Of a DNA stretch of 64,000 bases, positions 1 to 24,829 are shown piece by piece. The notes under the pieces were generated by a model. That model was not told the origin of the DNA. It saw only the letters and a program-made list of their open reading frames with translations, and made no database searches. The stretch lies in assembly GCA_014384375.1 (NCBI GenBank), contig JACNFY010000034.1, positions 1,674 through 65,673 on the forward strand, written 5' to 3'. Position 1 is the stretch's first letter. Every line of letters begins with the position of its first letter. Source of the stretch: Nanobdellati archaeon (GTDB lineage: Archaea; Nanobdellota; Nanobdellia; Woesearchaeales; GCA-2686295). A program made the translations under genes and the position numbers.

Positions 1-257
1 AGAAGAACTGCTTTAACTCCTGCTTCTTTCAGCTCCTCTAGCAATTTCAATAGTCTTTCTGTTTTTATGAATTGAGTTTTTTCAAAATCAACTCCAACAT
101 TTACTTTATTGGATCTGTGAACACAGTAAGAACAATTATGATTGCAGACATTCGTTACATCAATCTGAACTTGAGCAGGAATTTGTAATTTGTTCTGCTT
201 AAGAAGTTTTATCTTGTCAGAGTGATGCAATACTTTGAAAGGAGAGTATATATCCAT
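1..257 (-). CDS. radical SAM enzyme, N-terminal fragment (gene continues beyond window start)
   Basis: Reverse-complement of 1-257 translates as MDIYSPFKVLHHSDKIKLLKQNKLQIPAQVQIDVTNVCNHNCSYCVHRSNK..., which carries a CxxxCxxC rSAM cluster motif. Start ATG is the reverse of 255-257. Confidence 0.55.
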   Translation of the reverse strand, partial: MDIYSPFKVLHHSDKIKLLKQNKLQIPAQVQIDVTNVCNHNCSYCVHRSNKVNVGVDFEKTQFIKTERLLKLLEELKEAGVKAVL

Positions 258-280
258 GAAATAGTAAGAATCTGTTTCTA

Positions 281-1729
281 TTAAATAGTTTTTTGTTTTA
301 ATTCTAGTATTTTTGGATTGCCTTCTCTTAGTATAAAATAATTGTCTAATATCTTATTTATTTTTTTATTTTTGTTGAAGTTGATGAATTTTTCTTCTCT
401 TTCTTCAAAAATTAGTATGTATTTCACTTTTTCATTTGATGTTTTTCTTATGAATAAATATTCTTGAAAGTCAAAAACACTTATTCCAGGAGGTTCTCTT
501 TTGGTTAACCAATATATTTCGGGAGACCATCCAAAAGCAATAAATGTCTCGTTTTCATTTAGATTATGTTTTAGAAAGTTTATGGTCTCCTTTTGCTCTT
601 GCTTTGAGTCAAAGCCACTGTATGGAATGTTTATATTTCCTTTATTAATTGGAAAATCCTTCCACTGAATACTTTGTGAAATTATACTAATTGCTAGTAT
701 TATTATAATAATTGCATAGAATTTTTTATTTTTAATATTCTTACTTAGAATAGAACCTGCCATAATACTAGCTGGTGGTACTACCATTAAGAAATAATGA
801 CCAAAAGATGGAGGAATTAGAGTTGTTATAAAGAATGAAATAAACCACAAAAAAATTAGTGTATCTTTTTTTAAAACTTTTTTTTCCTTAAATTTTTTTA
901 TTGTATTTGTAATCCATATAGTGACTAATGTCCACATTATAAATCCTTGACTAATTATGAAGAACCAATAATCTAATTCAACATATCTATAAAAACCTCC
1001 TTTATTGTAGCGAAGGATTAGAAAATCAAATAAAAAAAATCTCAAATAATGAAAAATATTCTGGGCTAAATAGAATGCTATAATAATAAATCCCAATATT
1101 ATTGTCGGAGATAAAAATAGTAACACATTTTTTGTTCTATTTTTCTTTTCTTTTAATAGTAGATATAATGAAGGTATTATCCAAACCATCGCAGATTGTT
1201 TTATAGTTATCGCTATGAAGAATGAGATTCCTGATATTATCAAAAACCAGTTGTTTTTTGTTTCCAAATATTTTATTATGAAATAGAACGAGAAAATAAT
1301 GAAATACACTAAGAATGATTCAGCCATAGCTAACTGTCCTTCATAGAATGGAATATTCATAAAGAAGATATAAGCTATTAGTGACCATAAAGCGGTTTTT
1401 TTATTGTATAATTTTTTTGTAGTCTGGAAGAGAATAAGTATTGATAGCAAGAATAAGATATTATTGACAATTCTTGCAGAGTATATATTGTTTCCTAGAA
1501 GTTTTGTTGAAGCCAAGTATATTACGAATATGCCTGGTGGTTTACTTTCTGCAATGTCTTTATATAATAATTCGTCATTTGACATCCTCCAAGCAACTTG
1601 GCCAAAAGTTCCTTCATCTCTCTCTATAATTGTATCAATCCAAGCAAATCTTAATATTAAAGCCAGTATTATTAAAAGTATCAAGTATTTGTAGTTTCTA
1701 AGCTTAATAAAGAATTTTTTATCTGTCAT
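281..1729 (-). CDS. GT-C superfamily membrane glycosyltransferase (PMT_2/ArnT-like)
   Basis: 482 aa, multi-TM, with an N-terminal loop DE motif (IERDEGTFGQVAWRM) followed by a KPPG loop, typical of GT39/GT83-like polyprenyl-phosphate-sugar dependent transferases. Confidence 0.55.
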   Translation of the reverse strand: MTDKKFFIKLRNYKYLILLIILALILRFAWIDTIIERDEGTFGQVAWRMSNDELLYKDIAESKPPGIFVIYLASTKLLGNNIYSARIVNNILFLLSILILFQTTKKLYNKKTALWSLIAYIFFMNIPFYEGQLAMAESFLVYFIIFSFYFIIKYLETKNNWFLIISGISFFIAITIKQSAMVWIIPSLYLLLKEKKNRTKNVLLFLSPTIILGFIIIAFYLAQNIFHYLRFFLFDFLILRYNKGGFYRYVELDYWFFIISQGFIMWTLVTIWITNTIKKFKEKKVLKKDTLIFLWFISFFITTLIPPSFGHYFLMVVPPASIMAGSILSKNIKNKKFYAIIIIILAISIISQSIQWKDFPINKGNINIPYSGFDSKQEQKETINFLKHNLNENETFIAFGWSPEIYWLTKREPPGISVFDFQEYLFIRKTSNEKVKYILIFEEREEKFINFNKNKKINKILDNYFILREGNPKILELKQKTI

Positions 1730-1786
1730 TTAAGTTTTTTATGTTAGAATGGTATTTAAATATTACTTAATGATATTCTTTCTGTA

Positions 1787-2344
1787 TTAATATGTTGCGT
1801 GTACGTCTTCTCCGGTTTCGCAAGTTGCTTGTTCTTTTTTCAAGGCACTATATGGGTTTTCTTGGAATTCATCATTTAATTCCTTTAAGCCAGGAACTTT
1901 ATCAACATTAGGATTGGACATCCATATTCCAAGAGCTCTATCTAGCATCTCTTCTGTTATCCATTCGCATATACTGTAGTTTTTTAAATCATCTGCGATG
2001 TATTTTATGCAGTTTATCATGAGTTCCTGCTCACATCTGTCTATTGTTTTTTCTGGAAAAACCTCTCTGTTTTTATAGAACAAGGAGCAGAGTTCAGGGG
2101 TTTCAGCAATCCTACTCTCCAATTGCTGGCAGTATAATAGGACTTCTTCTTCGATTAATACTTCTCCTATTCCTAAGTCAGTTACTTCTTCGTCTATCTC
2201 TTCTTTGGTTATTTCTTCATCTATCTCTTCTTCTACAGCCTTGTTAATTAGAATTGTTCCGATTATTATTATTAATCCTATTACGAAAACAATTGTTAAT
2301 GTTTTTAGACTTACTTCTTCAGCTTCTTCTCTTTTTTTAGGCAT
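1787..2344 (-). CDS. membrane-anchored acidic protein with paired-cysteine modules
   Basis: N-terminal TM helix, a Glu-rich linker, then C-x-Q-L-x9-C and C-x-Q-E-x5-C modules resembling those in the ORFs at 52459, 55350 and 55783. Confidence 0.35.
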   Translation of the reverse strand: MPKKREEAEEVSLKTLTIVFVIGLIIIIGTILINKAVEEEIDEEITKEEIDEEVTDLGIGEVLIEEEVLLYCQQLESRIAETPELCSLFYKNREVFPEKTIDRCEQELMINCIKYIADDLKNYSICEWITEEMLDRALGIWMSNPNVDKVPGLKELNDEFQENPYSALKKEQATCETGEDVHATY

Positions 2345-2360
2345 GTGTGTTTTATAGGTT

Positions 2361-3410
2361 TTATTCTTTTTTAAATATTGCTTTTTTTATTCTTAGTACT
2401 AAGAAGCTCAATGCTTCGAAGAATAAAGTTATCCTCTGTTTCATATTTCTTGCTAGTAATATTCTGAGCAACCATCTTTTTAAAGTTATTAAAAATAAAC
2501 TCTTTTTTGTAAACAACTCTTTTTCTGTTAGACTAAGAATAAACAATTGGTATTTACTAGAATTATTCATTATTTTTTTTAAGACATTATTTGGAATCTT
2601 TGCATTTAATAATTTTTTACTTAAACTTAACGCTTTGTATACGAAAGAAGAACAGTTCCATTTCTTGGATTTTATTATTATATTATTCCAGTTTAATTCT
2701 TCTTTTTCGATTATTTTTTTTATATCCAAGAGATTTCGAATTCCTAAAAGAAAGAAATTATCATAAGATGTTTGTGTGCATAGGTATATTAGAGAATCTT
2801 CTATTTTAGGAATGTATATTTTCATATCAAACAGGTCTGTCTTCTTCTTGCTGATTTCGTTTATTGGAATTTCAAAGGGACTATTTACCTGTTCCAGTTG
2901 GTGGTGAATCTCTATTATTACTTTCATTCCTCCGACTCTTTTTGTCAGTGGTTTGTAATGGTGAAAGTGTTTCTTATAGAATTTTTCAGAATAATCGTTT
3001 TTTTCTTTATATCCTAGTGTTTTTATTTTTTTTGTTATATTTCTTTCATCTTTCAGGCACAACAGGTCAATATCTGTCAGAAACCTTTCCCCAAAGTCTT
3101 GTTTTGTAACAGCTATTATTGAGAATCCCTTTATAAGAACAGCGTCTTTTTTGTAGTGTTCTAATTTAGTTAGCATTTTCTTTAACTCGTTCAATAAAAC
3201 CAAGTTTCTTTTTGTATTATGAAGATAGAATTTTTTTAGTTCCTCATTGATTTCATTGGGAATATCAATATTAAATAATTGTATTTTTTTGTATAAAACT
3301 CCAGAAAGTGCGTTTCTGTTAGAAATTTTTAGGAATCTCTGCCAGTCTACTTTTTTCGTTGAGAATTTTTTACCATTAAGAGTTTTAATTATTATCTCTT
3401 CTTCTTTCAT
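2361..3410 (-). CDS. nucleotidyltransferase-fold protein (pol-beta superfamily)
   Basis: IKGFSIIAVTKQDFGERFLTDIDLLCL fits the hG[GS]...[DE]h[DE]h NTase core. A 4-nt overlap with the downstream B12-rSAM gene suggests an operon. Confidence 0.45.
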   Translation of the reverse strand: MKEEEIIIKTLNGKKFSTKKVDWQRFLKISNRNALSGVLYKKIQLFNIDIPNEINEELKKFYLHNTKRNLVLLNELKKMLTKLEHYKKDAVLIKGFSIIAVTKQDFGERFLTDIDLLCLKDERNITKKIKTLGYKEKNDYSEKFYKKHFHHYKPLTKRVGGMKVIIEIHHQLEQVNSPFEIPINEISKKKTDLFDMKIYIPKIEDSLIYLCTQTSYDNFFLLGIRNLLDIKKIIEKEELNWNNIIIKSKKWNCSSFVYKALSLSKKLLNAKIPNNVLKKIMNNSSKYQLFILSLTEKELFTKKSLFLITLKRWLLRILLARNMKQRITLFFEALSFLVLRIKKAIFKKE

Positions 3411-4795
3411 TTGAAAGCAATCATTAAATATGTTAACAAACCCTTTGCCAAGTACTTTGCTTTTCTTGGATTTAAAAGTAGCCCTAGATAGTAAAGTAAT
3501 ATTCTGGGTTGAAGATAGAATCCCAACTGTATCCTCTTAAACTCCTTTTTGAGTTTTTTCTCAGTTAAATCTTTTGGAATAAAATTTACTTGAAATGTTT
3601 TATTAGTGTAACTTTTGATTTTACCAAATTTTTCCGCTTCTTTCTCTAGTTTTACACTCCTCATAGGAGTGAAGAAATCCAATAAAATATCATCCGGCTT
3701 TGTTTTCTTTATGAGAGTCTTTGTTTCGTTTATTGTTTCAGTTGTTTCTCCAGGACTTCCAATAATAAAGAAAGCGCGAACTCTAATACCTGACTTCTTG
3801 ATTTCTTTTACTTGGCGTATTATTTGCTGTCTGGTTATTTTTTTATTTAAAATTTCTAGTATCTTATCTGATCCACTTTCTATACCAAAAGATATTTGCC
3901 AACAACCGACTTTTTTCATTAGTCTGGCTAGTTTGTAGTCTAATGTGTCTATCCTTGTTTGACAGCTCCAACTCATGTTTACTTTTTTTCTTATGAGTTC
4001 TTCACAGAATTTTTCTGTCCTTTTTCTTGGAATTGTAAAAACATCATCATAGAAACAGATGTCTTTTACTTTGTACTTTGTTTTTAAGAAATTCATTAAT
4101 GGAACCATGTATTTTGGAGAATTATAGCTTAATTCATTCCCAAAAACTGATTGATGGCAGAATGAGCAATTCCACAAACATCCCCTAGCAGTCAGCAGAT
4201 TTATTGAAGGAGCATCCTTAAACATGCTCGGTGTTGGTTCATACAGGTCCGGGAATCCTTCTAAAAGATCAAATGATGGAAAAGGAACTGTATCTAAATT
4301 CTTGATTCTTGTGTTTTCCTGTTTTGTTTTTATTAGTTTATTGTTTTCTCTGAATATGATTCCTCCTATTTTTGAAAGTTCTTTGTTGTTTATTATTTCT
4401 AGAATATGTTTATCTGATTCTCCTAGCACAGCAATGTCAAAGAATTCACAATCTTTCATAGTACTTTCTGGTACAGCAGAAACATGCGGCCCGCCAACAA
4501 TTATTTTTATCTTTGGGTTAAAATGTCTAATCCTCTCTGCCAGTATTTCTGAGTTTTGAAGAAAATCACTTATAATGCTGATTGCAACAAAGTCAGAATT
4601 TAATTCTTTGATCCTTTTAATTGTTTCATCAATGGTTAAGTATAGATTTTGTGCGTCAATTATGCTTGTTTCAATACCTGCTTTTCTTGTTGAAGAAGCA
4701 AGTTGGCAGATTCCGAGAGGAACTCTTTTGAACTCTTCGATAAAGTCATTTTTTCTTTTGTTTCTTGGCGGATTAATAAAAACTATTTTTACCAT
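3407..4795 (-). CDS. B12-binding domain radical SAM enzyme (class B)
   Basis: The N-terminus looks like a cobalamin-binding Rossmann domain (IIDAQNLYLTIDE...VAISIIS..IIVGGPH), followed by an ARGCLWNCSFCHQ CxxxCxxC motif. Confidence 0.6.
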   Translation of the reverse strand: MVKIVFINPPRNKRKNDFIEEFKRVPLGICQLASSTRKAGIETSIIDAQNLYLTIDETIKRIKELNSDFVAISIISDFLQNSEILAERIRHFNPKIKIIVGGPHVSAVPESTMKDCEFFDIAVLGESDKHILEIINNKELSKIGGIIFRENNKLIKTKQENTRIKNLDTVPFPSFDLLEGFPDLYEPTPSMFKDAPSINLLTARGCLWNCSFCHQSVFGNELSYNSPKYMVPLMNFLKTKYKVKDICFYDDVFTIPRKRTEKFCEELIRKKVNMSWSCQTRIDTLDYKLARLMKKVGCWQISFGIESGSDKILEILNKKITRQQIIRQVKEIKKSGIRVRAFFIIGSPGETTETINETKTLIKKTKPDDILLDFFTPMRSVKLEKEAEKFGKIKSYTNKTFQVNFIPKDLTEKKLKKEFKRIQLGFYLQPRILLYYLGLLLNPRKAKYLAKGLLTYLMIAFK

Positions 4796-4801
4796 TCTTT
4801 T

Positions 4802-5827
4802 TCATATGAATTCCAAATGCATCTTATTATCAAGTATTAAATCTTTAGCATAATTGTTGTATTGATGAAAAGGACAATCATATATGTTGCAAAGCTTTAG
4901 ATCAGGCATCTTAATTATTTTTTTATGTTTCTTACTGTTCCATATATCATCAAAGCTTTGTGTGTATATATTTCCAATAGACGGGGTTTTTATATGGTTG
5001 AAAAAGACGCATAAGTGAACATCTCCGTTAGAATTTATAAGTGTGTGTAGAGGATTTGTGAAGCATTGATTTCTTATATGCGTTTTCTCCAGAGAACTGT
5101 AAACTTTGAAGTCTTTATTTGATAGCTTCTTCGATTTTGCTAATAGTTTTTTTGCGATAGATAATTCTTCTTTATTTATTTCATTCTCATTATTCCTCAA
5201 ACACTTGAATTGTATGTAATCAACATTAAGTTGTTTTGCTTTTTTGCTCATTTCTAATATATTCTTATAATTGATTTTTGAAACCAGAACTTTCAGACCA
5301 ATTATTGTTTTTAAATTATAATTATTTTTTATTTTCACTAATAATTCTATGTTTTTTAGTAGCTTTTCATAATCGTTTTTTTGATGTATTTTTTCATATT
5401 CTTCATTATTAGATGCATCAAAAGCTATCCTGATGAAGAAGCAGTTCTCCAAAATGTTTTTGGCGTTTTTTTCGTTGAATAATATTGCGTTTGTGAAAAG
5501 TCCAACTTTAAGTCCTGATTTACTTGCATGTCTAATAACTTCTTCTATCTTAGGATGCATTAATGGCTCTCCCCCACCAGATATTTCTACTCCTTCAACT
5601 CCTTTGTCCTTCACTTGATTAAGCAAGGACTTGAAAATCTCCAAATTAAGAAAAGGTTTTTCTTCTTTATGCAAATCCAAAGAATGGCAACCAACGCATG
5701 TATGGTTACATCTCTCTGATATAAAGAAGTGTACAGTTCTTGGATAAGGAAATTCTCCTCTGATTATCTCTTTTATTTCCTTATAATGAGTTAATACTTT
5801 TTCTTTTACAAAAGGTGTTTCTTCCAT
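4802..5827 (-). CDS. radical SAM/SPASM-domain enzyme
   Basis: ISERCNHTCVGCHS cluster motif, GGGEP, and C-terminal Cys-rich auxiliary-cluster pattern (CFTNP...HLCVFF...CNIYDCPFH). Paralogous in layout to the rSAMs at 13731, 17504 and 18846. Confidence 0.6.
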   Translation of the reverse strand: MEETPFVKEKVLTHYKEIKEIIRGEFPYPRTVHFFISERCNHTCVGCHSLDLHKEEKPFLNLEIFKSLLNQVKDKGVEGVEISGGGEPLMHPKIEEVIRHASKSGLKVGLFTNAILFNEKNAKNILENCFFIRIAFDASNNEEYEKIHQKNDYEKLLKNIELLVKIKNNYNLKTIIGLKVLVSKINYKNILEMSKKAKQLNVDYIQFKCLRNNENEINKEELSIAKKLLAKSKKLSNKDFKVYSSLEKTHIRNQCFTNPLHTLINSNGDVHLCVFFNHIKTPSIGNIYTQSFDDIWNSKKHKKIIKMPDLKLCNIYDCPFHQYNNYAKDLILDNKMHLEFI

Positions 5828-6507
5828 TTTATGAATAAAATTATTGTCCCTATAAAAGCAATGATTGAGTGCTTTATAATTCTTACTTTTGATTCTTTGC
5901 GATGCTTAAACTTTACAGGAAATTCCTTAATCTTATAACCTTTATCTCTAATCTTCAGATATATTTCTAACAAACTCTCAAAGCCAGTTCTTTGAAGGTC
6001 AAGATTTTTTATTGCTTTTCGTTTGAAAATAGCAAATCCACTTTCAATATCTTTTATTTTTAATCCAAACAAAATCCTGTATAAAAAATAATACATTCTA
6101 CTTATAATCTTTCTATGAAAAGGATAATCTGCTTTTGTTCCGACAAACCTTGAACCTATTATTACATCCAAGTTTGTATTTGAAAAAGCTTTGTAAAACT
6201 TATTTATATGAGATGGAGAAACAGCCATATCAGCATCTAAAATGACAACATAGTCTCCCTTTGCTTCATCAAACATTCGTTTATATGCTTCGCCCACACC
6301 TCTGTTTGGAAAGTAGGTTACTACTTTTACACTTTTATCTTTCTTTTGTATACTTTTGAGTTTTTCAAGTGTTGAATCTGTACTGCCATCATCAAACAAT
6401 ATTATTTCATATGGCTGTTTTATTTTTCTAAATTCTTTTTTTATCACAACATAACTTTTTTCAATTATTCTTTCCTCATTATAGCAAGGTATGCAAACAG
6501 ATATCAT
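5806..6507 (-). CDS. GT2 family glycosyltransferase (Dpm1/DPG-synthase-like)
   Basis: CIPCYNEE ... LFDDGSTD ... ILDADM motifs of GT-A fold inverting glycosyltransferases. Confidence 0.65.
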   Translation of the reverse strand: MISVCIPCYNEERIIEKSYVVIKKEFRKIKQPYEIILFDDGSTDSTLEKLKSIQKKDKSVKVVTYFPNRGVGEAYKRMFDEAKGDYVVILDADMAVSPSHINKFYKAFSNTNLDVIIGSRFVGTKADYPFHRKIISRMYYFLYRILFGLKIKDIESGFAIFKRKAIKNLDLQRTGFESLLEIYLKIRDKGYKIKEFPVKFKHRKESKVRIIKHSIIAFIGTIILFIKWKKHLL

Positions 6508-6559
6508 AATTTTTCCTCACTAAGATTATGAACTAAAAAAATTCTGAATTTTTTTGATA

Positions 6560-7432
6560 TCATCTTATTTTTTTTGTCGTTATTGATATTTTCCAAATTG
6601 AATGGTCTTTTTTTACTTTAAAATCAATCCATCCAAGGAATCTTGCTATTGTTTCTAATATGATAGCAATTAATAGGTGTAGTATCTTGCTGATATTTCT
6701 GAATGAGTATTTAATCACTGTTTTTAACAGCAAAGTTTTGTTCATTGTTGAAGCAGAATGATTTGTTCTTTTTCTTAGCTCTAGATGCCCTGCGTATATT
6801 CTTCTTCTTTGTCTTATAAAGTCCTTTATTGTTTCTGGTCCTTTGTTGTATACTATCGCTTTTGGTTCATATATTAGTTTTAATCCTTTCTTCTTAATTA
6901 TCGAAGCTATTTCTTCTTCATCAACAGCTGTTCTTGGTATTTTGTTTATGATGTTTCTAAAAGCTATTAATTCTCCGAATTTAGGATTCTCTTTTGATAT
7001 TAGATGATGCAATTTCCATTGTAGTTGAACTATGAAATTCATTAATTTTTTGTTGCTTTTGATTGGTATAAACCTCCCAGTTCCTATTCCAACTTTTGGA
7101 CTGCTAAGTCTTGAACAGAGATTTTCTATACTATTTATTTCAGGTATAGTGTCTGCGCTTTCTAAAACAAGAATTTTGCTTTTTGCTTTTTTTAAGAAAA
7201 GATTTATTGCTTCACTTTTTCCTTTTCTTTCTTTTTCAACTATCAGTTTTATCTTTTTGTTTTTCTTAGAGAAATTGTTTACTATTTCGTTTGTTTTATC
7301 TGTGCTTCCAGAAGAAACAACGATGATTTCTTTTATATTTGCTTTCTTTGTTTTTTGGTTTAGAATTGCGTTTAGAAGATTACCAATATTACTCTCTTCA
7401 TTATAGGCCATTACCCCCACAGATATGTTCAT
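6560..7432 (-). CDS. GT2 family glycosyltransferase
   Basis: VGVMAYNEESNI ... VVSSGSTDKT ... motif order typical of GT2. Confidence 0.55.
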   Translation of the reverse strand: MNISVGVMAYNEESNIGNLLNAILNQKTKKANIKEIIVVSSGSTDKTNEIVNNFSKKNKKIKLIVEKERKGKSEAINLFLKKAKSKILVLESADTIPEINSIENLCSRLSSPKVGIGTGRFIPIKSNKKLMNFIVQLQWKLHHLISKENPKFGELIAFRNIINKIPRTAVDEEEIASIIKKKGLKLIYEPKAIVYNKGPETIKDFIRQRRRIYAGHLELRKRTNHSASTMNKTLLLKTVIKYSFRNISKILHLLIAIILETIARFLGWIDFKVKKDHSIWKISITTKKIR

Positions 7433-7595
7433 TTTCCAAACAATTATAAATCCTAATTTATTAATAAATATTGTGTTAGAGGATTATTCTTTTCAAGTTG
7501 TTAATTTGCGTAACTGAATATAGTTTTTAGCAATTTTTATAAATGTGTGCCAATATTTACTTATAGTGGTGGGGCTCTAATATCAAAAAAATAAA

Positions 7596-9673: not shown

Positions 9674-11773
9674 ATGTCTCTTTTTAACAAACCTCTTTTC
9701 AAGCTTTTCTTGACTTTTTGGATTATTTATGCTTCTTTTGCTAATCTTAGTGGTTGGAATGAAAACTCTCGTTTAGATCTAACAAGGGCCATTGTTGATG
9801 AGGGAACTTTTAAGATTGATACTTATGCTAATAATACTGGTGACCGTGCTTATTATAATGGTCATTATTATTCTGACAAGTTTCCAGGGGCTTCTTTCTT
9901 AGCTGTTCCTCCTTATTTTGTTTTTAAACATGTTTTTGGAACTCCAAGCATAAATGATAATTTTTATGAGACAAATCCTGATCCTTTATATAACGGCATG
10001 GTTTTTTTTGTGATAATCTTTACTTCTGCTTTGTTCTCAGCATTAACTGTTGTATTAGTATATAAAACAGCTGGTTTCTTTACAAACAAAAAGAGTCATA
10101 AATATATTGTAGCAATAGCTTATGGCTTAGGAACGATTGCTTTTTCTCAAGCGACATTATTCATGGGTCATGCGATAGCTACTTTCTTTTCATTTGCAGC
10201 TTTTTATTTTGTTTTTAAGATGAGGAAAGAGAAAAAAGATTATTTATTTTTTGCAGGCATTCTTGGAGGATTTGCTATTATAACAGAACCATTAACTTTC
10301 TTGATAATTCTTGGTTGTTTTATTTTAGTCTTATTAACTAAAAAATTAAAGAACGTTCTTAATTTTAGTATTGGTTGCTTTTTGATTCTTTTAATGTTGT
10401 TTGGTTATAACTATGCTGTTTTTGAAGATCCTTTAGCTTCATCATATAATTATGTTGATATTGATTTTTACAGTTTGAGTTATAAGGACTTATCAATATC
10501 AAGCTGTAGTTTTTCTTCTCCCGTTAATGAAAATATTTTTCAGAAAATGAAATATCGAATATTTAAAAATATTCCTTGTAGAAGTTCAACACTTCAATAT
10601 TACAGTCCTGAATTAAATGCTATTGTGAAAGAGACTAATGATTTTAGTGAAGAAAGTTTTTTACTATTATATGAACAAAACTCAGCAGAAGGAACTTTTA
10701 ATTATTCAATTAAGAGAAATACATATTTTAAAAATGGAATAGAACAAGTTATGTACTCAAAAATAGTTCTTATTGGGGATGTATTATTCTATAACAAGAA
10801 TGTAACACAGTACACAGTTTTTGTAAATAAACAATTACTGCCAGTTAATTCTCGAGATTGGAAGAAATCAGCCGATTTTTACTTAGATTCGAATGGTATT
10901 CTTAAATACAATTATTTATTTGGAACTTATTCTTATACTAATTGCCCTTGGTTAAATGAGTATTATTATCCTTTTAATATTAGTAAACTTGAAACTTCAA
11001 AATGTGAGGAGAAGTTCTTCTATAGTTTTAATGGGAGTTTAATGCTTAAAAAAACTATTCGTGCTAATCTTACATATATTGGAAATGAAACATTGAATAT
11101 TAATTCTGAGAATTTTAATGTATACAAATTCAAAAACGAATTTTTTCTAGAACCAGAATATGATTATACTGTCATCATTAGAAATGTTGTTAGATTACTA
11201 TTTTATCCTTATAGAGGTTTGTTATTTTATAGCCCTATATTGTTTGTTTCAATCATAGGTTTGTGTTTCATGTATAGAAAATATAAGTTTGAAGCTATAA
11301 TGATTTCTTTGCTTTTTTTCCTTCTTTTACTTTTTAACGCTCAACAAACACTTTGGTGGGGGGGAACATCTTTTGGGCCAAGACAACTTTTACCCATCAT
11401 ACCTTTTTTAATAATTCCGTTATTGTTCTCTCTTAAAAAAATTAATATAAAATTTATATTATTAATAATGATGATTTCTGTATTTGTTAATCTTGTTGGT
11501 TTGGAAGAGTTAGAACAAAAATATGTGGTTGTTAATGAGGGTATTAGTTTCGAACCAGAACTTTGGAATAAGTTGGACTCATGGCAGCCAATAGCTAATC
11601 CTTTGTTTGATCATTATGCACCGTTATTTGCAAATTATGGTCCAAGAAGTGAGTTGCTTGAAAAAATGTTTGGAGTTAAGTTTATACCTTTTCTTAATGT
11701 ATTATTCTTATTATTAATAATTATCTTTATATTTAAAATAAACATCAGAAAAAGCAGAGTGAATAAAAATTAG
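9674..11773 (+). CDS. GT-C-like multi-TM glycosyltransferase with a large extracytoplasmic C-terminal domain
   Basis: 699 aa. The N-terminal ~240 aa has many TM helices and a VDEGTF loop motif like PMT/ArnT-type transferases. It is followed by an Asn/Tyr-rich soluble domain and further C-terminal TM helices. Confidence 0.45.
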   Translation: MSLFNKPLFKLFLTFWIIYASFANLSGWNENSRLDLTRAIVDEGTFKIDTYANNTGDRAYYNGHYYSDKFPGASFLAVPPYFVFKHVFGTPSINDNFYETNPDPLYNGMVFFVIIFTSALFSALTVVLVYKTAGFFTNKKSHKYIVAIAYGLGTIAFSQATLFMGHAIATFFSFAAFYFVFKMRKEKKDYLFFAGILGGFAIITEPLTFLIILGCFILVLLTKKLKNVLNFSIGCFLILLMLFGYNYAVFEDPLASSYNYVDIDFYSLSYKDLSISSCSFSSPVNENIFQKMKYRIFKNIPCRSSTLQYYSPELNAIVKETNDFSEESFLLLYEQNSAEGTFNYSIKRNTYFKNGIEQVMYSKIVLIGDVLFYNKNVTQYTVFVNKQLLPVNSRDWKKSADFYLDSNGILKYNYLFGTYSYTNCPWLNEYYYPFNISKLETSKCEEKFFYSFNGSLMLKKTIRANLTYIGNETLNINSENFNVYKFKNEFFLEPEYDYTVIIRNVVRLLFYPYRGLLFYSPILFVSIIGLCFMYRKYKFEAIMISLLFFLLLLFNAQQTLWWGGTSFGPRQLLPIIPFLIIPLLFSLKKINIKFILLIMMISVFVNLVGLEELEQKYVVVNEGISFEPELWNKLDSWQPIANPLFDHYAPLFANYGPRSELLEKMFGVKFIPFLNVLFLLLIIIFIFKINIRKSRVNKN

Positions 11774-11801
11774 CAATCTGAAATTAAAAACAAAAAAACT
11801 T

Positions 11802-12905
11802 GTGGAAGAAGACCTATCAAGGTTAGTTTCATTTATTAGCAAGCATTTTAAGAGTTCTACAATTATTCTTGCAGGCAGTTTTTATCATAATGAAGCAACA
11901 ACGTATTCTAGTAATGGAGAGTTAAAATTTTTTAGTGATTATGACATATTCATTGCCTTTGATTACTACAATCCTTTTACATTCATGTTGAATACTTTAA
12001 AATTGAAAAAATTTAAAGTTGAGTTAAAGAAGTTACAGGAGGTTTTGAATAACAAAAAAGTTGATTTGAATTTTATTTGGAGACCATTAATAAAAATGGG
12101 CATCCAGAGAGGAGTCAATGAAGGAAAAGTTTTGTATGGAAATAGAGGTTATATAAGGAAACAAAGAGGAAAGAGATATTTCAGGAATTGCGACTTATTT
12201 TATCTATTAGAACAAAACTACACATTTCTATTGCTAAGTAATCCCTTAATAAAACAAAAAAGTATGGCTTGTTACTTTGTAATAAAAACTGTTTTACAAT
12301 CATTAGAAATACTGTACTTGAGAACATTTAACGAAACCGAAACTTACAACAAGAAATATATTTTAGATAAAATAAGAAATTCAAACTTTATAGATAAAAG
12401 AGAAGAAATAACTTGCAAAAAATGTTTAAACAGAAAGATTGAATCAAAAAAAAACACTATTTTTTATGACACAAATTTATGGTTTGAAGCAAGAGACCTT
12501 TTAGACAAAGTTTTATTTAAGATATTTAAAACAGAAGAGAAAGAAAAGCTATTAAACAAAATATCTAAAAACATAACTTTTCATTTAAAAATCAAAAATG
12601 GGTTATTACTACTGAAATTCTTACTAAAAAACAGAATCAAAGTTAATTATTTTCAAATTCTTAACATACCTTTAATAAATTTCTTCAATAAGTTTAATCT
12701 TGTTCATTGTATAGAAAAAAATTTTGAAATAAACAAAAAACAGCTAACTGAAGTTGAGAACGGTATCTTCAAAATAAACAAAGAGAAAAATAAATTTAGT
12801 GATTCTGAAAAAAGGTTTTTCTGGTCTTTTGAGAAAATAACTACATATAAAAAAGAAAATCCTTTAGAGATTAAAACCGGAGAAAGAAAACATTTTTATT
12901 TCTAA
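11802..12905 (+). CDS. nucleotidyltransferase-fold protein (NTase-1)
   Basis: IILAGSFYHNEATTYSSNGELKFFSDYDIFIAFD is a GS...[DE]h[DE]h pol-beta NTase core, followed by a long helical Lys-rich C-terminal region. Confidence 0.5.
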   Translation: MEEDLSRLVSFISKHFKSSTIILAGSFYHNEATTYSSNGELKFFSDYDIFIAFDYYNPFTFMLNTLKLKKFKVELKKLQEVLNNKKVDLNFIWRPLIKMGIQRGVNEGKVLYGNRGYIRKQRGKRYFRNCDLFYLLEQNYTFLLLSNPLIKQKSMACYFVIKTVLQSLEILYLRTFNETETYNKKYILDKIRNSNFIDKREEITCKKCLNRKIESKKNTIFYDTNLWFEARDLLDKVLFKIFKTEEKEKLLNKISKNITFHLKIKNGLLLLKFLLKNRIKVNYFQILNIPLINFFNKFNLVHCIEKNFEINKKQLTEVENGIFKINKEKNKFSDSEKRFFWSFEKITTYKKENPLEIKTGERKHFYF

Positions 12906-12924
12906 CAATTTTCTCTTTAATCAA

Positions 12925-13698
12925 ATGAACGACCTTTACCAAAATGAAGAATTATTTAATAAATTCTGGACAAACAGAGAAAGGCTTTATCCTTCCAGCA
13001 ATTTCGAAGAATGGAAAAAAGATGTTTTATTTGTAATTCTAGATGATATTATCAAAGAAAACAAAAAGAAAGAACTTAGATTCCTTGATGTTGGTTGTGG
13101 TTTAGGCAGTAATGTTTTGGATTACAGTAAAAAACTAGAGAAACCAAAAGTTTTCTTAATAGATTTATCCAAGAAAGTTATATCAATGATACACAAGGAA
13201 CTAACAACCTCTCAAAATAAATATGTTAAGTCTAAGCAGGCAAGTGCTTTAAAAATTCCTTTTCAAGACAATTATTTCGATTTTGTTTTTAGCAATCAAG
13301 TAAATCATTATTTTAAAGGCGAAGATAGAAAAAAAGCATTCTCAGAATTATATAGGGTTTGTAAACCAAAAGGTCATGTTTTTATTTGTGTTGGGAACAA
13401 GTATTACATTCCCTGGCAATTAACTCATTTTTTTAAAGACAAAGTTTTAGATACTTGGATTCATGGGCATATGAGTTTTTACTCTTATTCTGAATTAAAA
13501 AAATTTATGACTGGTTTTAAACTAAAATATTTATTTGGTATTGGAAATGCATATAGAATCCCGAAAAGTTTTTTATTATTTTTGAATAAAATTTTTTATA
13601 GAAAATATAATCCTTTTTATTTTTACAAACCAGTTGTTCCATTTCCCAAGATTCTTGCTCAATATTTTTATCTTATAGGTAGAAAGGAAAAAAATTAA
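12925..13698 (+). CDS. class I SAM-dependent methyltransferase
   Basis: Motif I LDVGCGLGSN and the post-II segment LYRVCKPKGHVFI. The gap from the upstream gene is 19 nt. Confidence 0.7.
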   Translation: MNDLYQNEELFNKFWTNRERLYPSSNFEEWKKDVLFVILDDIIKENKKKELRFLDVGCGLGSNVLDYSKKLEKPKVFLIDLSKKVISMIHKELTTSQNKYVKSKQASALKIPFQDNYFDFVFSNQVNHYFKGEDRKKAFSELYRVCKPKGHVFICVGNKYYIPWQLTHFFKDKVLDTWIHGHMSFYSYSELKKFMTGFKLKYLFGIGNAYRIPKSFLLFLNKIFYRKYNPFYFYKPVVPFPKILAQYFYLIGRKEKN

Positions 13699-13730
13699 AT
13701 TTAAAAAAGAAAAGTGCTTGAAGGTTAAAT

Positions 13731-14825
13731 ATGAATAACAATAACTCTTTTTTAATGTATGCGTTAAAAAGATCTAAAAACTATTTGTTAAATAATCTGA
13801 ATTATTATTATAGTGGTATAAATTCATCAAAGCCAAATGTTTTTATTTTTGTTTTTACCAAAAAGTGCAACTTTCGTTGCACACACTGTGACATCTGGAA
13901 AGAAAAAAACTTTGGTGATGAGATAAGTCTAGATGATTGGAAAAAAGCAGCGACCAATATCTTCAATTGGGTAGGTCCTTTTATTGCTAGCATCACCGGA
14001 GGAGAAGCTTTTCTAAGAAAAGACTTGTTTGAATTTGCAGATTTTCTGAAAGATAAGTGCATTGAATTAAAATTAAACACTAATGGTTCATTAATCAATG
14101 AAAGGATTGCAAAAAGACTTTCTAAAAGTCCTTTCAAAACCTTCATATTCTCACTTTATAGTCTAAGTAACCATACTAATGATAAGCTTAGGGGTATAAA
14201 AGGATCATATAAAAAAACACTTAGAGCAATTAATTTAATGAATAAATATTGTGAGAAATATGGTTTTAAGAAGAAGATGTGTATAGCTGTGCTAATAACA
14301 AAGTATAACTTATTAGAACTATCTAAGATAGTTATATGGGCTAAAACCATGAATGTAAAGGTAATTTTGCAACCTCTTCTAAAAAATTTTGATACAGATT
14401 TTGAATCAGATTGGATTGATAGAAGTAAACTTTGGCCTAATGATAGAGAATTAATTCACCAAATTTTTAAGGAAATAATTCATATGAAAAAAAATGGTTT
14501 TCCAATCAGCAATGATATATCACAATTAGAAATGATGAAGAACTATTATTTAAGAAATAAAGAAGAAGTGCTCAAACATAAATGCAAAGTTGGAGTTGAC
14601 AACATCACAATTTATCAAGATGGTAATATTAAGTTTTGTTCTTTAGCTAATAATATTGGGAACATAAAAAATAATTCGATAAGCAAGATATGGAAGTCTA
14701 TAACTGCAAAAGAAGAAAGACAAACTTTATTTGATTGCAAAAAAGATTGCAGAGTTCATCCCTGCTATTATGACAAACCATTAAAAGCTAAGATTAATGG
14801 GTTTATTAGTGAATATAAAAACTAG
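13731..14825 (+). CDS. radical SAM/SPASM-domain enzyme (rSAM-1)
   Basis: CNFRCTHC motif at residue ~46, ITGGEAF, and a C-terminal CKVG...FCSLAN...CKKDCRVHPC auxiliary-cluster Cys pattern. There is no N-terminal RRE-sized extension. Confidence 0.7.
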   Translation: MNNNNSFLMYALKRSKNYLLNNLNYYYSGINSSKPNVFIFVFTKKCNFRCTHCDIWKEKNFGDEISLDDWKKAATNIFNWVGPFIASITGGEAFLRKDLFEFADFLKDKCIELKLNTNGSLINERIAKRLSKSPFKTFIFSLYSLSNHTNDKLRGIKGSYKKTLRAINLMNKYCEKYGFKKKMCIAVLITKYNLLELSKIVIWAKTMNVKVILQPLLKNFDTDFESDWIDRSKLWPNDRELIHQIFKEIIHMKKNGFPISNDISQLEMMKNYYLRNKEEVLKHKCKVGVDNITIYQDGNIKFCSLANNIGNIKNNSISKIWKSITAKEERQTLFDCKKDCRVHPCYYDKPLKAKINGFISEYKN

Positions 14826-14837
14826 ATAAGATAAAAA

Positions 14838-15854
14838 TTGGTTAACTACAATTTGAAATTTTCATTAAAAGAAACTCCTAAGATAAGAAAAGATGTAATC
14901 CTAAACCTAAATAAAATTGTTGTATATTTAGAAGAAAAAATTCCTAATTCCGCAATTGGATTGTGGGGAAGCTTCTCATATGGTGAGGGAAGAGTAAAAA
15001 AGGTAAATGGAACTCTAAAATATCAAGATGATATGGACATATTTATATATACAAATTCACTTGTTAAATACTTAAAATGGCATAATAAAATTAAAAATCT
15101 AGGCGAAAAATTAAATATTAATGCGGAAGTATGTGTCTGGGTTAAATGTATTCCATTAATTAGGTTAGGATTATCTTTCTGCGGCTTTCCAAAAATGTTG
15201 AATAAAAAAAAACTTGATATGTTCAAAGAAAAAAGATTTCCTCAAATTATAGAATCAACAAAATATTTATTAGAAAGCCATCAGTATATGTTCAGATTTA
15301 TAACAACAAAAAATAGAGAGAATCTAATTAAAGCTTATATTAGATTGTATAGATCATTAGAAATTTATGATAGAAAAAACAAAGAAGTATTTTCATTAAA
15401 AAACAATCTAAAAAGCTTAGAGAAATACAGAAAAGAGCTAACTAAACAACAGAACGATATTCTAAAATCTGCAATAAAAATCAGACTTGGTATGAAAAGT
15501 AAAACTAAAATTGATTTTTCATCAATATTTAAAATGAAGTCATTGTTTGAGAAAATGTTTTATAAGTTAAATAATAAAAATGGGCTCTTTATTGTTAGAT
15601 ATCAACTAATAATTTGGAAGTATTTGTTTTTTAATAAAAAGCCAATAAAGATACTTATTAATTTTAATAAACAAAGATTAGCTGCGAGTAATTATTTATT
15701 AAACTCAATAACTGAGAAAAAGCGAATAAATGATGAGTACCTGAAAAAAGCAGAATATATAGTAACAAATATTTTATCTGAAAAGCCAAGAACTAATTCA
15801 AAAGAAAAAAGATTCAAGTGGGTTGCTGATAAGTTATGGGAAATCTACAAATGA
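14838..15854 (+). CDS. nucleotidyltransferase-fold protein (NTase-2), paralog of 16471..17502
   Basis: GLWGSFSYGEGRVKKVNGTLKYQDDMDIFIY NTase core. It aligns along its whole length (~45% identity by eye) with the ORF at 16471. Confidence 0.55.
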   Translation: MVNYNLKFSLKETPKIRKDVILNLNKIVVYLEEKIPNSAIGLWGSFSYGEGRVKKVNGTLKYQDDMDIFIYTNSLVKYLKWHNKIKNLGEKLNINAEVCVWVKCIPLIRLGLSFCGFPKMLNKKKLDMFKEKRFPQIIESTKYLLESHQYMFRFITTKNRENLIKAYIRLYRSLEIYDRKNKEVFSLKNNLKSLEKYRKELTKQQNDILKSAIKIRLGMKSKTKIDFSSIFKMKSLFEKMFYKLNNKNGLFIVRYQLIIWKYLFFNKKPIKILINFNKQRLAASNYLLNSITEKKRINDEYLKKAEYIVTNILSEKPRTNSKEKRFKWVADKLWEIYK

Positions 15855-16458
15855 TTTAAAAATATTTAAATATAGACTTCAAATAGTTATTTTGATGATA
15901 TCTCCAATTATTAACAATCTAATTTATTTGCTTCTCATTATTTTGTGTTTATGTATAATAATAGTAACAGTAATTATTTTTCTTAGCCGAAAAGCAATTG
16001 GAATTTCAAAGACTGATAAGAGATTCATGAAGATAGCTTACAAAGAAGCTGAGATGGCTCTAAAAGCTAAAAACGGCCCTGTTGGCGCTGTTTTGACTAT
16101 TAATGATAAAATAATTGCTAAAGCTCATAATCAAGTTGAAACAAGTAAAAATTACTTTGCTCATGCAGAAATACTAACTATAAATAAAGCTCTTAGAAAA
16201 CTAAACATAAAAAATTTTGGCGAAATAAAAAACAAAGCTATATTATATACTACTTATGATCCTTGTACATTTTGTGAAGGATTTATTATCTGGGCAAAAG
16301 TTTCAAGAATTATTGTGGGGAAAAATGAACCATTAGTGAACTCTATAAAAAAAGACATGTCTCATTTAACTTATAAAATAAGAAAAAAAGGCGGGTTATA
16401 CATAGACATACAAACAAAATTATTCAAAAAATTCCTAATCGTCAATATTAAAAAATAA
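15823..16458 (+). CDS. membrane-anchored CDA-fold deaminase (TadA/CDA-like)
   Basis: HAEILTI ... YDPCTFCEGFII are the H[AC]E and PCxxC zinc-binding motifs of the cytidine/tRNA-adenosine deaminase fold. There is an N-terminal hydrophobic helix. The ORF overlaps the upstream gene, and the in-frame Met at 15895 is a more likely start. Confidence 0.6.
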   Translation: MLISYGKSTNDLKIFKYRLQIVILMISPIINNLIYLLLIILCLCIIIVTVIIFLSRKAIGISKTDKRFMKIAYKEAEMALKAKNGPVGAVLTINDKIIAKAHNQVETSKNYFAHAEILTINKALRKLNIKNFGEIKNKAILYTTYDPCTFCEGFIIWAKVSRIIVGKNEPLVNSIKKDMSHLTYKIRKKGGLYIDIQTKLFKKFLIVNIKK

Positions 16459-16470
16459 ATACTAATTTGT

Positions 16471-17502
16471 GTGATAAGATTGAGAAATTATAATTTTAAC
16501 TTTGCTTTAAATGAAACTAAAGAAATAAGAGAAAAAATTTGTTCTGATATTGATAAGATTGTTAGTTATTTAGAAGGTCTTATTTCTGGTTGTGCTGTTG
16601 GATTGTGGGGTAGTTTTTCTTTTGGTGAAGGACGTGTAAAAGAAGTTAACAATAAACTAGAGTATGTAGATGATCTGGATTTTGTTGTCTATACTAATTC
16701 AATTGTAAAGTTTTTCAAATGGAATAATAATAAAACGCTAAAGAATCTGAATGAAAAATTAAATATCAATGCAGAAATCTGTGTTTGGGTTAAATGTATT
16801 CCATTAATAAAGCTTAGATTGTTTTTTTGTGGGTTTCCAAGAATACTAAATAAAAAAGGGGTTAATATTTTCAAAGAAAAGAATATTCCAACAATACATG
16901 TTTATTCAACTTATTTACTAAAAAGCTATTATCGTCTCTTTAAATATGTATTAACAAACGAAAAACATTTTCTGAGGAAAGCATATATTGAAGTTTTCAG
17001 GTCTTTAGTGTTCAGTAAAAAAAGGGACAAAGATACTTTTTCATTGAAGCATAATTTAAATCAGTTAAACGAGTATAAGAAAATTCTAACTAAAGAGCAG
17101 TATAGAATAATTGAGTGTTCTATAGAAAGCCGATTGAGTTTAAAAACAAAAAGTGAAATAGGTTATGATTCTATATCTAAAATGAAACCCTTATATGACA
17201 AACTTTTTAATAAATATTATAGAACAACTAGCACATTCTCTATGAAGTATTACTTTAAACTTATTAAATTTCTTTTACAAGAAAAAAAGATTCCCAACAT
17301 TTTCATTAATTTTAGCAAAAAGAGATTTTTAATTCATCATTATTTATTGCAAGCTTTAGAAAAAAATAAAAAGATAAATGAGTCCTATTTGAAAAAAGCA
17401 GAAGATACAATTAAAAAAATGTGTTATGAAACAAACCAATACAAATCTTTAGAAGAAAGATTTTCATGGTGTATAAAAAATTTAGAGTATATCTGGAGAT
17501 AA
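16471..17502 (+). CDS. nucleotidyltransferase-fold protein (NTase-3)
   Basis: GLWGSFSFGEGRVKEVNNKLEYVDDLDFVVY. Clear paralog of the ORF at 14838. Confidence 0.55.
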   Translation: MIRLRNYNFNFALNETKEIREKICSDIDKIVSYLEGLISGCAVGLWGSFSFGEGRVKEVNNKLEYVDDLDFVVYTNSIVKFFKWNNNKTLKNLNEKLNINAEICVWVKCIPLIKLRLFFCGFPRILNKKGVNIFKEKNIPTIHVYSTYLLKSYYRLFKYVLTNEKHFLRKAYIEVFRSLVFSKKRDKDTFSLKHNLNQLNEYKKILTKEQYRIIECSIESRLSLKTKSEIGYDSISKMKPLYDKLFNKYYRTTSTFSMKYYFKLIKFLLQEKKIPNIFINFSKKRFLIHHYLLQALEKNKKINESYLKKAEDTIKKMCYETNQYKSLEERFSWCIKNLEYIWR

Positions 17503-17503
17503 A

Positions 17504-18541: not shown

Positions 18542-18545
18542 AAAT

Positions 18546-18849
18546 ATGAAAATGGAAAAGTTAAAACCTTTTAGCTTTACTCTGAATGAGACTCCAACAA
18601 TAAGAAGAAAAATTTGTTCTGACCTTGATAAAATAGCAGATTATATAGAGAAAACAGTTCCGAATTCTGTAGTCGGTTTATGGAGTGCCTTTTCATACGG
18701 AAAGGGAAGGGTAAAAGAGATAGATGGAAAATATCTTAAAAAAGCAGAAAAAATCTTAGAGGATTACTTTTGTGAAGAAAGAATGGGCATCTCTAAAAAA
18801 AGAGAGATTTGCACGAGTTGCTGATAAATTAGTGGAACTTTACAAATGA
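18546..18849 (+). pseudogene. decayed NTase paralog (NTase-4 remnant): internal deletion plus 3' frameshift
   Basis: The 92-aa ORF keeps the N-terminal ~60 aa of the NTase family, but the GS motif is degraded to SAFSYGKG and the acidic triad is missing. It then jumps to the family C-terminus (YLKKAE...). The last family segment ERFARVADKLVELYK* is readable only in the -1 frame and ends at a TGA overlapping the ATG of rSAM-3 at 18846. Confidence 0.5.
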
Positions 18850-24821: not shown

Positions 24822-24829
24822 AAAATTAT

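Follow-up and report, generated by a model that had tools for sequence, protein, structure and literature searches.

The stretch of DNA analysed here, referred to as the window, comprises 64,000 nucleotides of contig JACNFY010000034.1 (assembly GCA_014384375.1), assigned to a Nanobdellati archaeon of the Woesearchaeales, in the DPANN group. At its left end the window carries, on the minus strand, an operon of at least nine genes, coding for two family-2 glycosyltransferases (GT2a and GT2b), a GT-C glycosyltransferase, a nucleotidyltransferase-fold protein of family PF14907 (NTP_transf_5), an orphan membrane protein, here called TM185, and two pairs of radical S-adenosylmethionine (SAM) proteins, each pair made up of a protein with a SPASM-type C-terminal domain and of a B12-binding one. 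We lean towards the view that this operon makes, tailors and exports a lipid-linked sugar for a cell-surface glycoconjugate. The components are all of known kinds (dolichyl-phosphate-sugar synthase, GT-C, class-B radical SAM, twitch radical SAM, nucleotidyltransferase), and no described system combining them was found in the literature.

The operon and its enzymes

Gene calling and Pfam searches bore out the gene order, the open reading frames (ORFs), the folds and the overlaps of the original prediction, a note made from the sequence alone. The eight co-directional genes of the window, listed in Table 1, are separated, in transcription order from GT2a to the radical-SAM gene at the window edge, by 52, -22, 6, -4, 16, 57 and 23 nt. 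The two overlaps are of 22 nt at 5806/5827, between GT2b and the twitch-like radical-SAM gene, and of 4 nt at 3407/3410, between the B12-binding radical-SAM gene and the PF14907 gene: the array is operon-like, and no chance set of ORFs. Identical operon proteins were found on 8-9 contigs of independent assemblies, those of the B12-binding and PF14907 genes on contigs as long as 135.8 kb. On an identical contig of 9.6 kb, L001, the gene cut by the window edge is present at full length: this L001 gene (7737-8771, 100% identity) encodes a 344-aa radical-SAM/SPASM protein and is followed, at 8805-9632, by another B12-binding radical-SAM gene, coding for at least 275 aa and ending at the contig end. 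With this second B12-binding gene after the edge gene, the gene count of the operon, which is interrupted by the start of the window, rises to nine or more. It holds two SPASM+B12 pairs, with about 30% identity between their members. A look-up of GT-C in long contigs, made to see left of the window, returned the same L001 alone.

GT2b is assigned by homology to the proteins resembling dolichyl- or polyprenyl-phosphate hexose synthases. Its best PDB match is the dolichyl-phosphate mannose synthase (DPMS) of Pyrococcus furiosus (5mlz, E 1.7e-28, residues 2-229), followed by GtrB and ArnC; its top NCBIfam models are PgfS, AglJ, ArnC, PpgS and a Dol-P-hexose transferase, all below cut-off, and a single C-terminal transmembrane (TM) segment is predicted. 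GT2a is likewise membrane-associated, having one C-terminal hydrophobic segment; its best NCBIfam models, PgaC/IcaA and MftF, score far under their cut-offs, and its PDB sequence matches, 6p61 and 6yv7, are family-2 glycosyltransferases. GT-C scores 56.4 bits with PMT_2, against a cut-off of 26.1, and features 8 predicted TM segments, with D38-E39 in the loop after TM1 ('ERDEGTF'); a second GT-C, of 699 aa, encoded on the plus strand of the window, carries 'VDEGTF' at the equivalent position. GT-C enzymes take lipid-phosphate-sugar donors, and in the best reading of these homologies GT2b and GT-C would be a donor/transferase pair within one operon. The link to glycan or lipid-carrier assembly, as originally drawn, gains from this pairing, as well as from the glycan neighbours of the B12-binding family described below.

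Functions of the radical-SAM and GT2 proteins were assessed by the NCBIfam equivalog cut-offs, and folds by the Pfam gathering scores. None of these proteins reaches the NCBIfam cut-off of any known family, including those of cofactor pathways and of peptides made on the ribosome and modified after translation (RiPPs). In the twitch-like protein of the first pair, the CxxxCxxC motif is represented by C40/C44/C47, and the best NCBIfam score is 111 bits, against a cut-off of 380. The C-terminal domain passes the Pfam threshold for SPASM (45.6 vs 21.5 bits), yet contains four cysteines only, C255, C273, C313 and C318. The same four-Cys domain is found in all paralogues within the window, on both strands, and the two-cluster SPASM motif, with its 7-8 cysteines, is found in none. 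Judged by their cysteines, these proteins are twitch-like, with a single predicted auxiliary cluster, and the SPASM label that they had been given at first should be narrowed to this extent. The PDB sequence neighbours of the twitch protein, BlsE, MoaA, DesII and viperin, act on sugars or nucleotide sugars, a likeness which lends weaker support to sugar tailoring.

In the B12-binding radical-SAM protein, the CxxxCxxC cysteines, C206/C210/C213, are invariant throughout the family alignment. The 39 NCBIfam matches of this protein, all sub-cut-off, are headed by HpnJ and BchE, followed by PhpK, BzaD and ApyD; the HpnJ match covers nearly the full length (E 1.4e-54), with 186 bits against a cut-off of 578. 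The AlphaFold2 model (pLDDT 87.5) finds its best folds in MgmA, AprD4 (TM-score 0.75), CysS, OxsB, TokK and TsrM, AprD4 being at the same time the fold with the best TM-score and the best PDB sequence match (E 2e-15); as AprD4 is an aminoglycoside enzyme, this likeness too lends weaker support to sugar tailoring. The protein has class-B architecture. The search against class B methylases recommended by the original prediction had a divided outcome, architecture and folds agreeing with that class and no methylase family cut-off being reached. Radical methylation or epimerisation, which had also been proposed, is a candidate chemistry; the top profile matches include two non-methylases, HpnJ and BchE.

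The PF14907 protein (130.1 bits, against a gathering score of 31.2) contains the residues K94-G95 and D113-x-D115, conserved in the family, and with them the G...DxD motif of nucleotidyltransferases. Its AlphaFold2 model (pLDDT 81, pTM 0.82) has a nucleotidyltransferase fold: Foldseek matched it at probability 1.00 to the nucleotidyltransferase-like 5uvd, to LnuA and to ANT(2'')-Ia, and MenT toxins were also retrieved. The likeness of the modelled fold to LnuA and ANT(2''), both sugar-hydroxyl nucleotidyltransferases, would support, again more weakly, a role in glycan assembly.

TM185, encoded between the PF14907 and GT-C genes, begins with a short basic N-terminus and a single TM segment; an acidic stretch rich in E and D follows, and after it a domain with 6 cysteines. 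No match was found in Pfam, NCBIfam or PADLOC, and an exhaustive phmmer search of 1.84 billion representatives returned the protein itself and one weak repeat match (P0137), of low complexity and uninformative. In the pathway proposed below it would be a lineage-specific accessory, perhaps acting as acceptor or scaffold.

Table 1. Features of the minus-strand operon and of its surroundings in the window
Feature	Position	Strand	Description
GT2a	6560..7432	-	290 aa; PF00535 E 1.7e-23; first gene of the operon
GT2b	5806..6507	-	233 aa; PF00535 E 9.8e-35
Radical SAM with twitch-like (partial SPASM) C-terminal domain	4802..5827	-	341 aa; Radical_SAM E 1.3e-16, SPASM E 8.5e-12
B12-binding radical SAM (class B architecture)	3407..4795	-	462 aa; B12-binding PF02310 E 1.9e-16, Radical_SAM PF04055 E 5.5e-22
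PF14907 (NTP_transf_5) nucleotidyltransferase-fold protein	2361..3410	-	349 aa; E 1.4e-37
Orphan TM185	1787..2344	-	185 aa; no family
GT-C (PMT_2/ArnT-like)	281..1729	-	482 aa; PMT_2 E 5.3e-15, PMT E 3.8e-7
Second radical-SAM SPASM/twitch gene, N-terminal 85 codons	1..257	-	motif CNHNCSYC
Intergenic region separating the divergent GT2a and WYL genes	7433..7595		sequence reading
Second sub-cluster, possibly associated	9674..19913	+	Pfam, paralogy, shared low GC

Related loci and gene fusions

The closest relatives of the B12-binding protein, 35-46% identical to it, were placed on their contigs, and their neighbourhoods inspected. The nearest one, in locus L003 (GCA_053530715.1), is 46% identical and is accompanied by a PF14907 protein 42% identical to that of the window (E 9e-97); the locus also contains Acetyltransf_6, PMT_2, ScmC and PqqD genes, two radical-SAM (SPASM) genes, a GT2 and an ABC-2 exporter. 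L011 features Wzx, DegT, a short GT2, PMT_2, a polysaccharide deacetylase, methyltransferases, Acetyltransf_6, a SPASM gene, four B12-binding radical-SAM genes and a PF14907 fusion, which amounts to an Arn-like set plus radical-SAM enzymes. In L007, from a Woesearchaeota genome, Wzx, SPASM genes and a gene for a 10-TM protein are found together with the series GT2, B12-binding radical SAM, methyltransferase. L009, from Pelotalea chapellei, combines the B12-binding gene with a GT2, a methyltransferase, a SPASM gene, a hexapeptide acetyltransferase, DUF218 and a GT2 with DUF2304. In L044 the genes follow each other in the order GT2, B12-binding radical SAM, 9-TM protein, a relative of GT2a (45% identity), SPASM radical SAM and NAD-dependent sugar epimerase/dehydratase, the GT2a relative adjoining the SPASM gene and lying near the B12-binding one.

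A metagenome scan for the B12-binding family retrieved 80 loci, of which 75 could be evaluated. In 17 of the 75 a GT2 gene is the immediate neighbour on the same strand, and in 35 one lies within 5 kb; within the same distance a class-I methyltransferase is found in 18/75, a second B12-binding radical SAM in 17/75 and a SPASM radical SAM in 9/75, all these figures being lower bounds, since genes were labelled by BLAST at E<1e-6, starting from few queries. Natural fusions were also detected: P0043 (798 aa) joins a B12-binding radical SAM to a radical-SAM/SPASM protein, and P0027 and P0044 (693-698 aa) join it to a class-I SAM methyltransferase, indicating that the partner enzymes work in one pathway. 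Taken together, gene neighbourhoods and fusions support a recurrent tie of the B12-binding family to glycan genes.

For the PF14907 protein, a direct homologue search returned the protein itself and one distant match, a profile search 15 proteins and a scan of genome contigs one distant locus. Some of its relatives lie in purely glycan contexts, as in L008, with a GT4-GT2-WecG/TagA series, and in L093, with Wza and GT1; the neighbourhood of a distant relative, P0133, is uninformative. At L011:3104-5252, a gene for a small kinase resembling RIO, Kdo, APH and choline kinases is followed by a PF14907 domain fused to a thymidylate-kinase-like P-loop domain, and in phosphonate clusters PF14907 adjoins thymidylate kinase and PEP mutase (PMC8942020). 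By analogy, this suggests for the family a logic of the type 'phosphorylate then nucleotidylate'. PsmN, an 'uncharacterised NTP transferase' of lasso peptide clusters, modelled on ANT(2''), is needed for the attachment of hexose to phospho-Ser (PMC6993621), and is a candidate member of PF14907.

Proposed pathway and competing explanations

Building on the fold and family assignments established above, we infer the order of the steps, the substrates and the chemistry of the pathway as follows. At the cytoplasmic face of the membrane, GT2b would charge dolichyl phosphate with a hexose taken from a nucleotide sugar, and GT2a may add or extend a sugar on an acceptor that is lipid-linked or otherwise close to the membrane. 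The two pairs of twitch and B12-binding radical-SAM enzymes would tailor the sugar, at the stage of either the nucleotide sugar or the dolichyl-phosphate sugar: the B12-binding enzyme would most likely C-methylate an unactivated carbon, an HpnJ-like ring rearrangement being the alternative, and the twitch enzyme would most likely oxidise, epimerise or decarboxylate the sugar. The PF14907 protein may then use an NTP, either to nucleotidylate a hydroxyl or a phosphate of the intermediate, or to activate a substituent that is then attached through a phosphodiester. After flipping, GT-C would take the tailored sugar off its dolichyl-phosphate carrier and pass it to an extramembrane acceptor, be it a protein or a glycan. 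Precedents exist for the central steps: sugars are tailored at the polyprenyl-phosphate stage in three-component systems, by DprE1/E2 and by epimerases (PMC11127046), and HpnJ, which co-clusters with Fom3 and MoeK5 in a similarity network, is a precedent for B12-binding radical-SAM enzymes acting on lipid-linked sugars (PMC9204698). Literature searches for B12-binding radical-SAM enzymes coupled to polyprenyl-phosphate, undecaprenyl or DPANN glycosyltransferases, and for SynChlorMet or NTP_transf_5, returned nothing relevant.

Several known systems share parts of this set. As in the three-component systems (GtrB/GtrA/Gtr*, ArnC/ArnEF/ArnT, DPMS with PMT-type enzymes), a GT2 similar to DPMS, GtrB and ArnC and a GT-C similar to PMT_2 and ArnT are found in one operon. 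In contrast to those systems, where radical-SAM (B12 or twitch) and PF14907 nucleotidyltransferase auxiliaries are not described, such proteins are the auxiliary enzymes here, the GT2s are two, two GT-Cs are present in the neighbourhood, and the host is an archaeon, whose carrier is presumably dolichol; a flippase gene, as discussed below, is not found. Of the Arn (L-Ara4N) pathway, the window has the ArnC-like and ArnT-like folds only, and not ArnA, B, D, E or F, analogues in the form of DegT and deacetylase genes being found in L011. The genetic coupling of a B12-binding radical SAM to a GT2 is shared with the HpnI-HpnK-HpnJ module of the hopanoid side chain and with MoeK5 of moenomycin, HpnJ being the best-scoring model. 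However, the score is such that the protein is no member of the HpnJ family; moreover, no hopanoid genes are found, and the organism is an archaeon, without a hopanoid pathway. The combination of a B12-domain radical SAM with a radical SAM having a single auxiliary cluster recalls the tailoring of aminoglycosides and nucleosides (GenK/GenD1, AprD4, BtrN, DesII, BlsE), but identities to these enzymes are 12-19% only, and the context is here a surface-glycan locus with membrane glycosyltransferases. Finally, a PF14907 member beside SPASM radical-SAM genes recalls accessory sets to which that family, or a candidate member of it, belongs, namely the lasso PsmK/PsmN pair and the SynChlorMet / HPr-kinase-related sets, the latter composed of PqqD, an HPr-kinase-like ScmC and two SPASM radical-SAM proteins. 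Unlike both sets, the window has no PqqD, HPrK-like kinase, lasso cyclase or protease, or precursor peptide, and its radical-SAM proteins score 44-67 bits with the ScmE and ScmF models of NCBIfam, against a cut-off of 400.

A number of findings weigh against the tailoring of a lipid-linked sugar. All radical-SAM and GT2 scores being below the equivalog cut-offs, the substrate is not fixed by family. A small flippase (GtrA/SMR, MATE, Wzx, ArnE/F or DUF2304) was sought in the 1-24 kb region and none was found, the small multi-TM ORFs of that region being antisense shadows only: a three-component scheme is therefore incomplete here, though a flippase may be encoded past the window edge or at another place in the genome. 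The operon, read as far as the second B12-binding gene on L001, has no genes for nucleotide-sugar synthesis, no DegT and no polymerase. The locus counts given above stand without a matched background control, GT2 genes being common. The bacterial relatives of the PF14907 protein (19-27% identity) are directly followed by PqqD in 3/3 informative loci (L092, L093 and the P0130 locus), with SPASM radical-SAM genes and ScmC nearby, and ScmC and PqqD are also both present in L003, which holds the closest relatives of the B12-binding and PF14907 genes of the window. This PF14907-PqqD-ScmC neighbourhood, the more usual one for the family and one that the original prediction had not considered, is a signature of peptide modification, and part of the set may serve in peptide maturation. 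In L092 (10001-12495) and L093 (10001-13638) a conserved 367-aa protein, belonging to no Pfam family and 51% identical between the two loci, also follows, and the bacterial PF14907-PqqD set looks like a conserved cassette in its own right. MNT/HEPN pairs lie within or beside the L092 and P0130 loci, a recurrence which is probably coincidental.

The same neighbourhoods are the main argument for an explanation that we regard as unlikely, namely that the operon is a RiPP-like cassette for the maturation of a peptide or protein, in which the radical-SAM enzymes and the PF14907 protein would modify a ribosomal peptide or TM185, and the GT2s and GT-C would glycosylate it. SPASM and B12-binding radical-SAM enzymes are common RiPP maturases, and those of the window have weak NCBIfam matches to ApyD, rSAM_ocin_1, AlbA and StsB; PsmN adds hexose to phospho-Ser, and the same ANT(2'') templates match the PF14907 protein (PMC6993621); a gene for a non-enzyme, TM185, lies in the middle of the operon. 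Yet tblastn of the PqqD proteins of L003, L092 and L093 and of the L003 ScmC against the window gave nothing better than E 0.6, neither a kinase nor Acetyltransf_6 was found there, and the gaps between the operon genes, at most 57 nt, leave no space for a precursor gene. TM185, being absent from L003 and from the 1.84 billion representatives, is not a conserved substrate. The C-terminal domains of the radical-SAM proteins have 4 cysteines, against the 7-8 typical of two-cluster peptide SPASM maturases; GT-C and dolichyl-phosphate-sugar synthases are foreign to known RiPP pathways; and the neighbours of the B12-binding family are sugar genes (DegT, Wzx, epimerase/dehydratase, deacetylase).

The other explanations address the radical chemistry or the genomic surroundings. 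Modification of isoprenoid membrane lipids, with radical-SAM enzymes methylating, cyclising or cross-linking the archaeal chains and GT2s making glycolipid head groups, would account for the several membrane proteins of the operon and for the matches of the B12-binding protein to HpnJ, HpnR and the ladderane 'lipid biosynthesis B12-binding/radical SAM' model; radical-SAM enzymes are prominent in lipid tailoring, the subject of a review (PMC13459092). We consider it improbable: the scores with these three models are far under cut-off, no isoprenoid or lipid-synthesis genes are found in the operon or in the related loci, where sugar-modifying enzymes and polysaccharide exporters are the neighbours, and what GT-C requires as donor is a sugar on a lipid phosphate rather than a core lipid that has been modified. 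An anti-virus defence island, in which viperin-like radical-SAM enzymes and nucleotidyltransferases would make modified nucleotides, is suggested by PADLOC, which matches the SPASM proteins to pVip (E 1e-16 to 2e-23) and the B12-binding protein to PDC-M51A, as well as by the WYL and HEPN/MNT genes between the sub-clusters and by the low GC content of the island. The pVip matches span, however, the generic radical-SAM core only (about 2-186 of 257 profile positions), and a twitch/SPASM domain stands in place of the remainder; the score with the viperin_w_prok model of NCBIfam is 56.6 bits, against a cut-off of 180, and the PF14907 protein, TM185 and the nucleotidyltransferase-like proteins of the plus strand have no PADLOC match. 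Defence, which would in addition leave the GT2, GT-C and DPMS-like genes and the glycan synteny unexplained, is very improbable. The lowest probability of all is given to a known route of cofactor biosynthesis or maturation (BchE, BzaD, MoaA, NirJ/AhbD or the tungsten-cofactor maturase), lying near glycosyltransferases by chance. BchE, BzaD, W_rSAM_matur, MoaA, NirJ and AhbD are indeed among the top NCBIfam names, but the scores all amount to 20-40% of the curated cut-offs, the partner genes of those pathways are not nearby, and the radical-SAM genes are translationally coupled to the GT2 and PF14907 genes. The original prediction had named two outcomes that would refute it, a scattering of these genes in orthologous loci and a placement of the radical-SAM proteins in known cofactor pathways: instead, GT2, methyltransferase and GT-C genes stay linked to the radical-SAM genes across distant genomes, and no cofactor cut-off is reached.

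The tailoring of a lipid-linked sugar may be part of something more widespread. We put forward, as a tentative possibility, that a B12-binding radical SAM, paired or fused with a twitch radical SAM and often with a class-I methyltransferase, alters the sugar made by the adjacent polyprenyl/dolichyl-phosphate GT2, by C-methylation or ring rearrangement, before GT-C acts; in the operon described here this radical route would be duplicated and joined to a nucleotide or phosphodiester decoration by the PF14907 protein. There is almost no work on the surface glycoconjugates of DPANN archaea, whose way of life is to be attached to host cells: if the proposal is true, unusual branched or rearranged sugars would be expected on the surface of an episymbiont cell. 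The assembly of a dolichyl-phosphate-sugar synthase, a GT-C, four radical-SAM enzymes and a PF14907 protein would point to reactions on sugars that have so far been unknown from lipid-linked glycosylation pathways, C-methylation, ring contraction and phosphodiester decoration being the candidates. The occurrence of the B12-binding gene beside short GT2s in many uncultivated bacteria and archaea may offer a tractable route to the function of a large orphan class-B branch, and the presence of PF14907 in both glycan and PqqD contexts is a lead for that family, of which the only candidate member studied, PsmN, takes part in glycosylation in a way not yet explained. Should the operon carry out ordinary glycan tailoring, the result would still be a useful annotation, with no new principle.

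Plus-strand genes and genomic setting

The divergent region upstream of GT2a contains a TATA-like sequence, TTTATAA, about 15-21 nt before the GT2a ATG; it may be an archaeal promoter, giving rise to a short-leader transcript. Beyond it lie a WYL gene (7596-8099, plus strand) and, on the minus strand, a toxin-antitoxin pair of the MNT/HEPN type (8933-9478 and 8463-8936), and then the second sub-cluster. This codes for the 699-aa GT-C already mentioned, three paralogous and weakly nucleotidyltransferase-like proteins of about 340 aa, along with a truncated copy of them, a class-I methyltransferase, three twitch-like radical-SAM proteins and a membrane-anchored deaminase.

The original prediction had joined the two sub-clusters, over 1-19.9 kb, in a single surface-modification supercluster, a proposal that can be followed in part. 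Relatives of genes from both strands are found in L003: a protein related to the C-terminus of the 699-aa GT-C (35% identity over 148 aa, E 8e-10), and a radical SAM which best matches the plus-strand ones (E 3e-33), both adjoining the relatives of the minus-strand B12-binding and PF14907 genes. Low GC content is also shared by the two sub-clusters. Against a single unit speak the WYL and HEPN/MNT genes lying in between, the divergent orientation and the lack of relatedness between the proteins of about 340 aa and PF14907. Distant membership of those proteins in PF14907 was considered and rejected (hhalign probability 0.1%); as there is no profile similarity, the nucleotidyltransferase theme said to be shared by the two sub-clusters is at most one of fold.

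Within the second sub-cluster, the unit formed by one of these paralogues and a radical-SAM gene occurs in tandem copies 1642-1648 nt apart, the repeats lying at 14852-15241, 16494-16889 and 18569-18777. A 92-aa ORF (18546-18824) corresponds to a collapsed paralogue, in which the N-terminal 60 or so residues are joined to the C-terminal 'YLKKAE' segment. Repeats and remnant ORF indicate that the plus-strand cluster has recently undergone duplication and decay. Between the pairs of nucleotidyltransferase-like and radical-SAM genes lies, at 15823-16458 on the plus strand, the gene for the deaminase, a protein of the cytidine/deoxycytidylate deaminase family (PF00383, E 4.9e-23) for which two TM segments are predicted at the N-terminus: such a membrane-anchored deaminase is unusual for a cluster of the glycan type.

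GC content is about 22-32% at positions 1-22000 and 23500-25000 (25-30% over the first 22 kb by themselves), against 33-42% in most of the remaining window. The low-GC part takes in both radical-SAM clusters, an intein and a GDSL-lipase-like gene (23847-24821), and would fit an island of surface-structure genes that was acquired or evolves fast; tRNAs or an integrase, sought as integration signals, are not found in the window. The rest of the window is occupied by housekeeping genes, such as those for SHMT, a Taw1-type wyosine radical SAM, NMD3 and an archaeal helicase with the intein. The latter, a Hel308-type ORF with a LAGLIDADG intein (Intein_splicing and LAGLIDADG_3) at 20023-23151 on the plus strand, abuts the low-GC cluster. 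This ORF opens with Helicase_C, a DEAD/RecA1 domain being absent upstream, and may stand for a gene that was 5'-truncated or split where it meets the island boundary.

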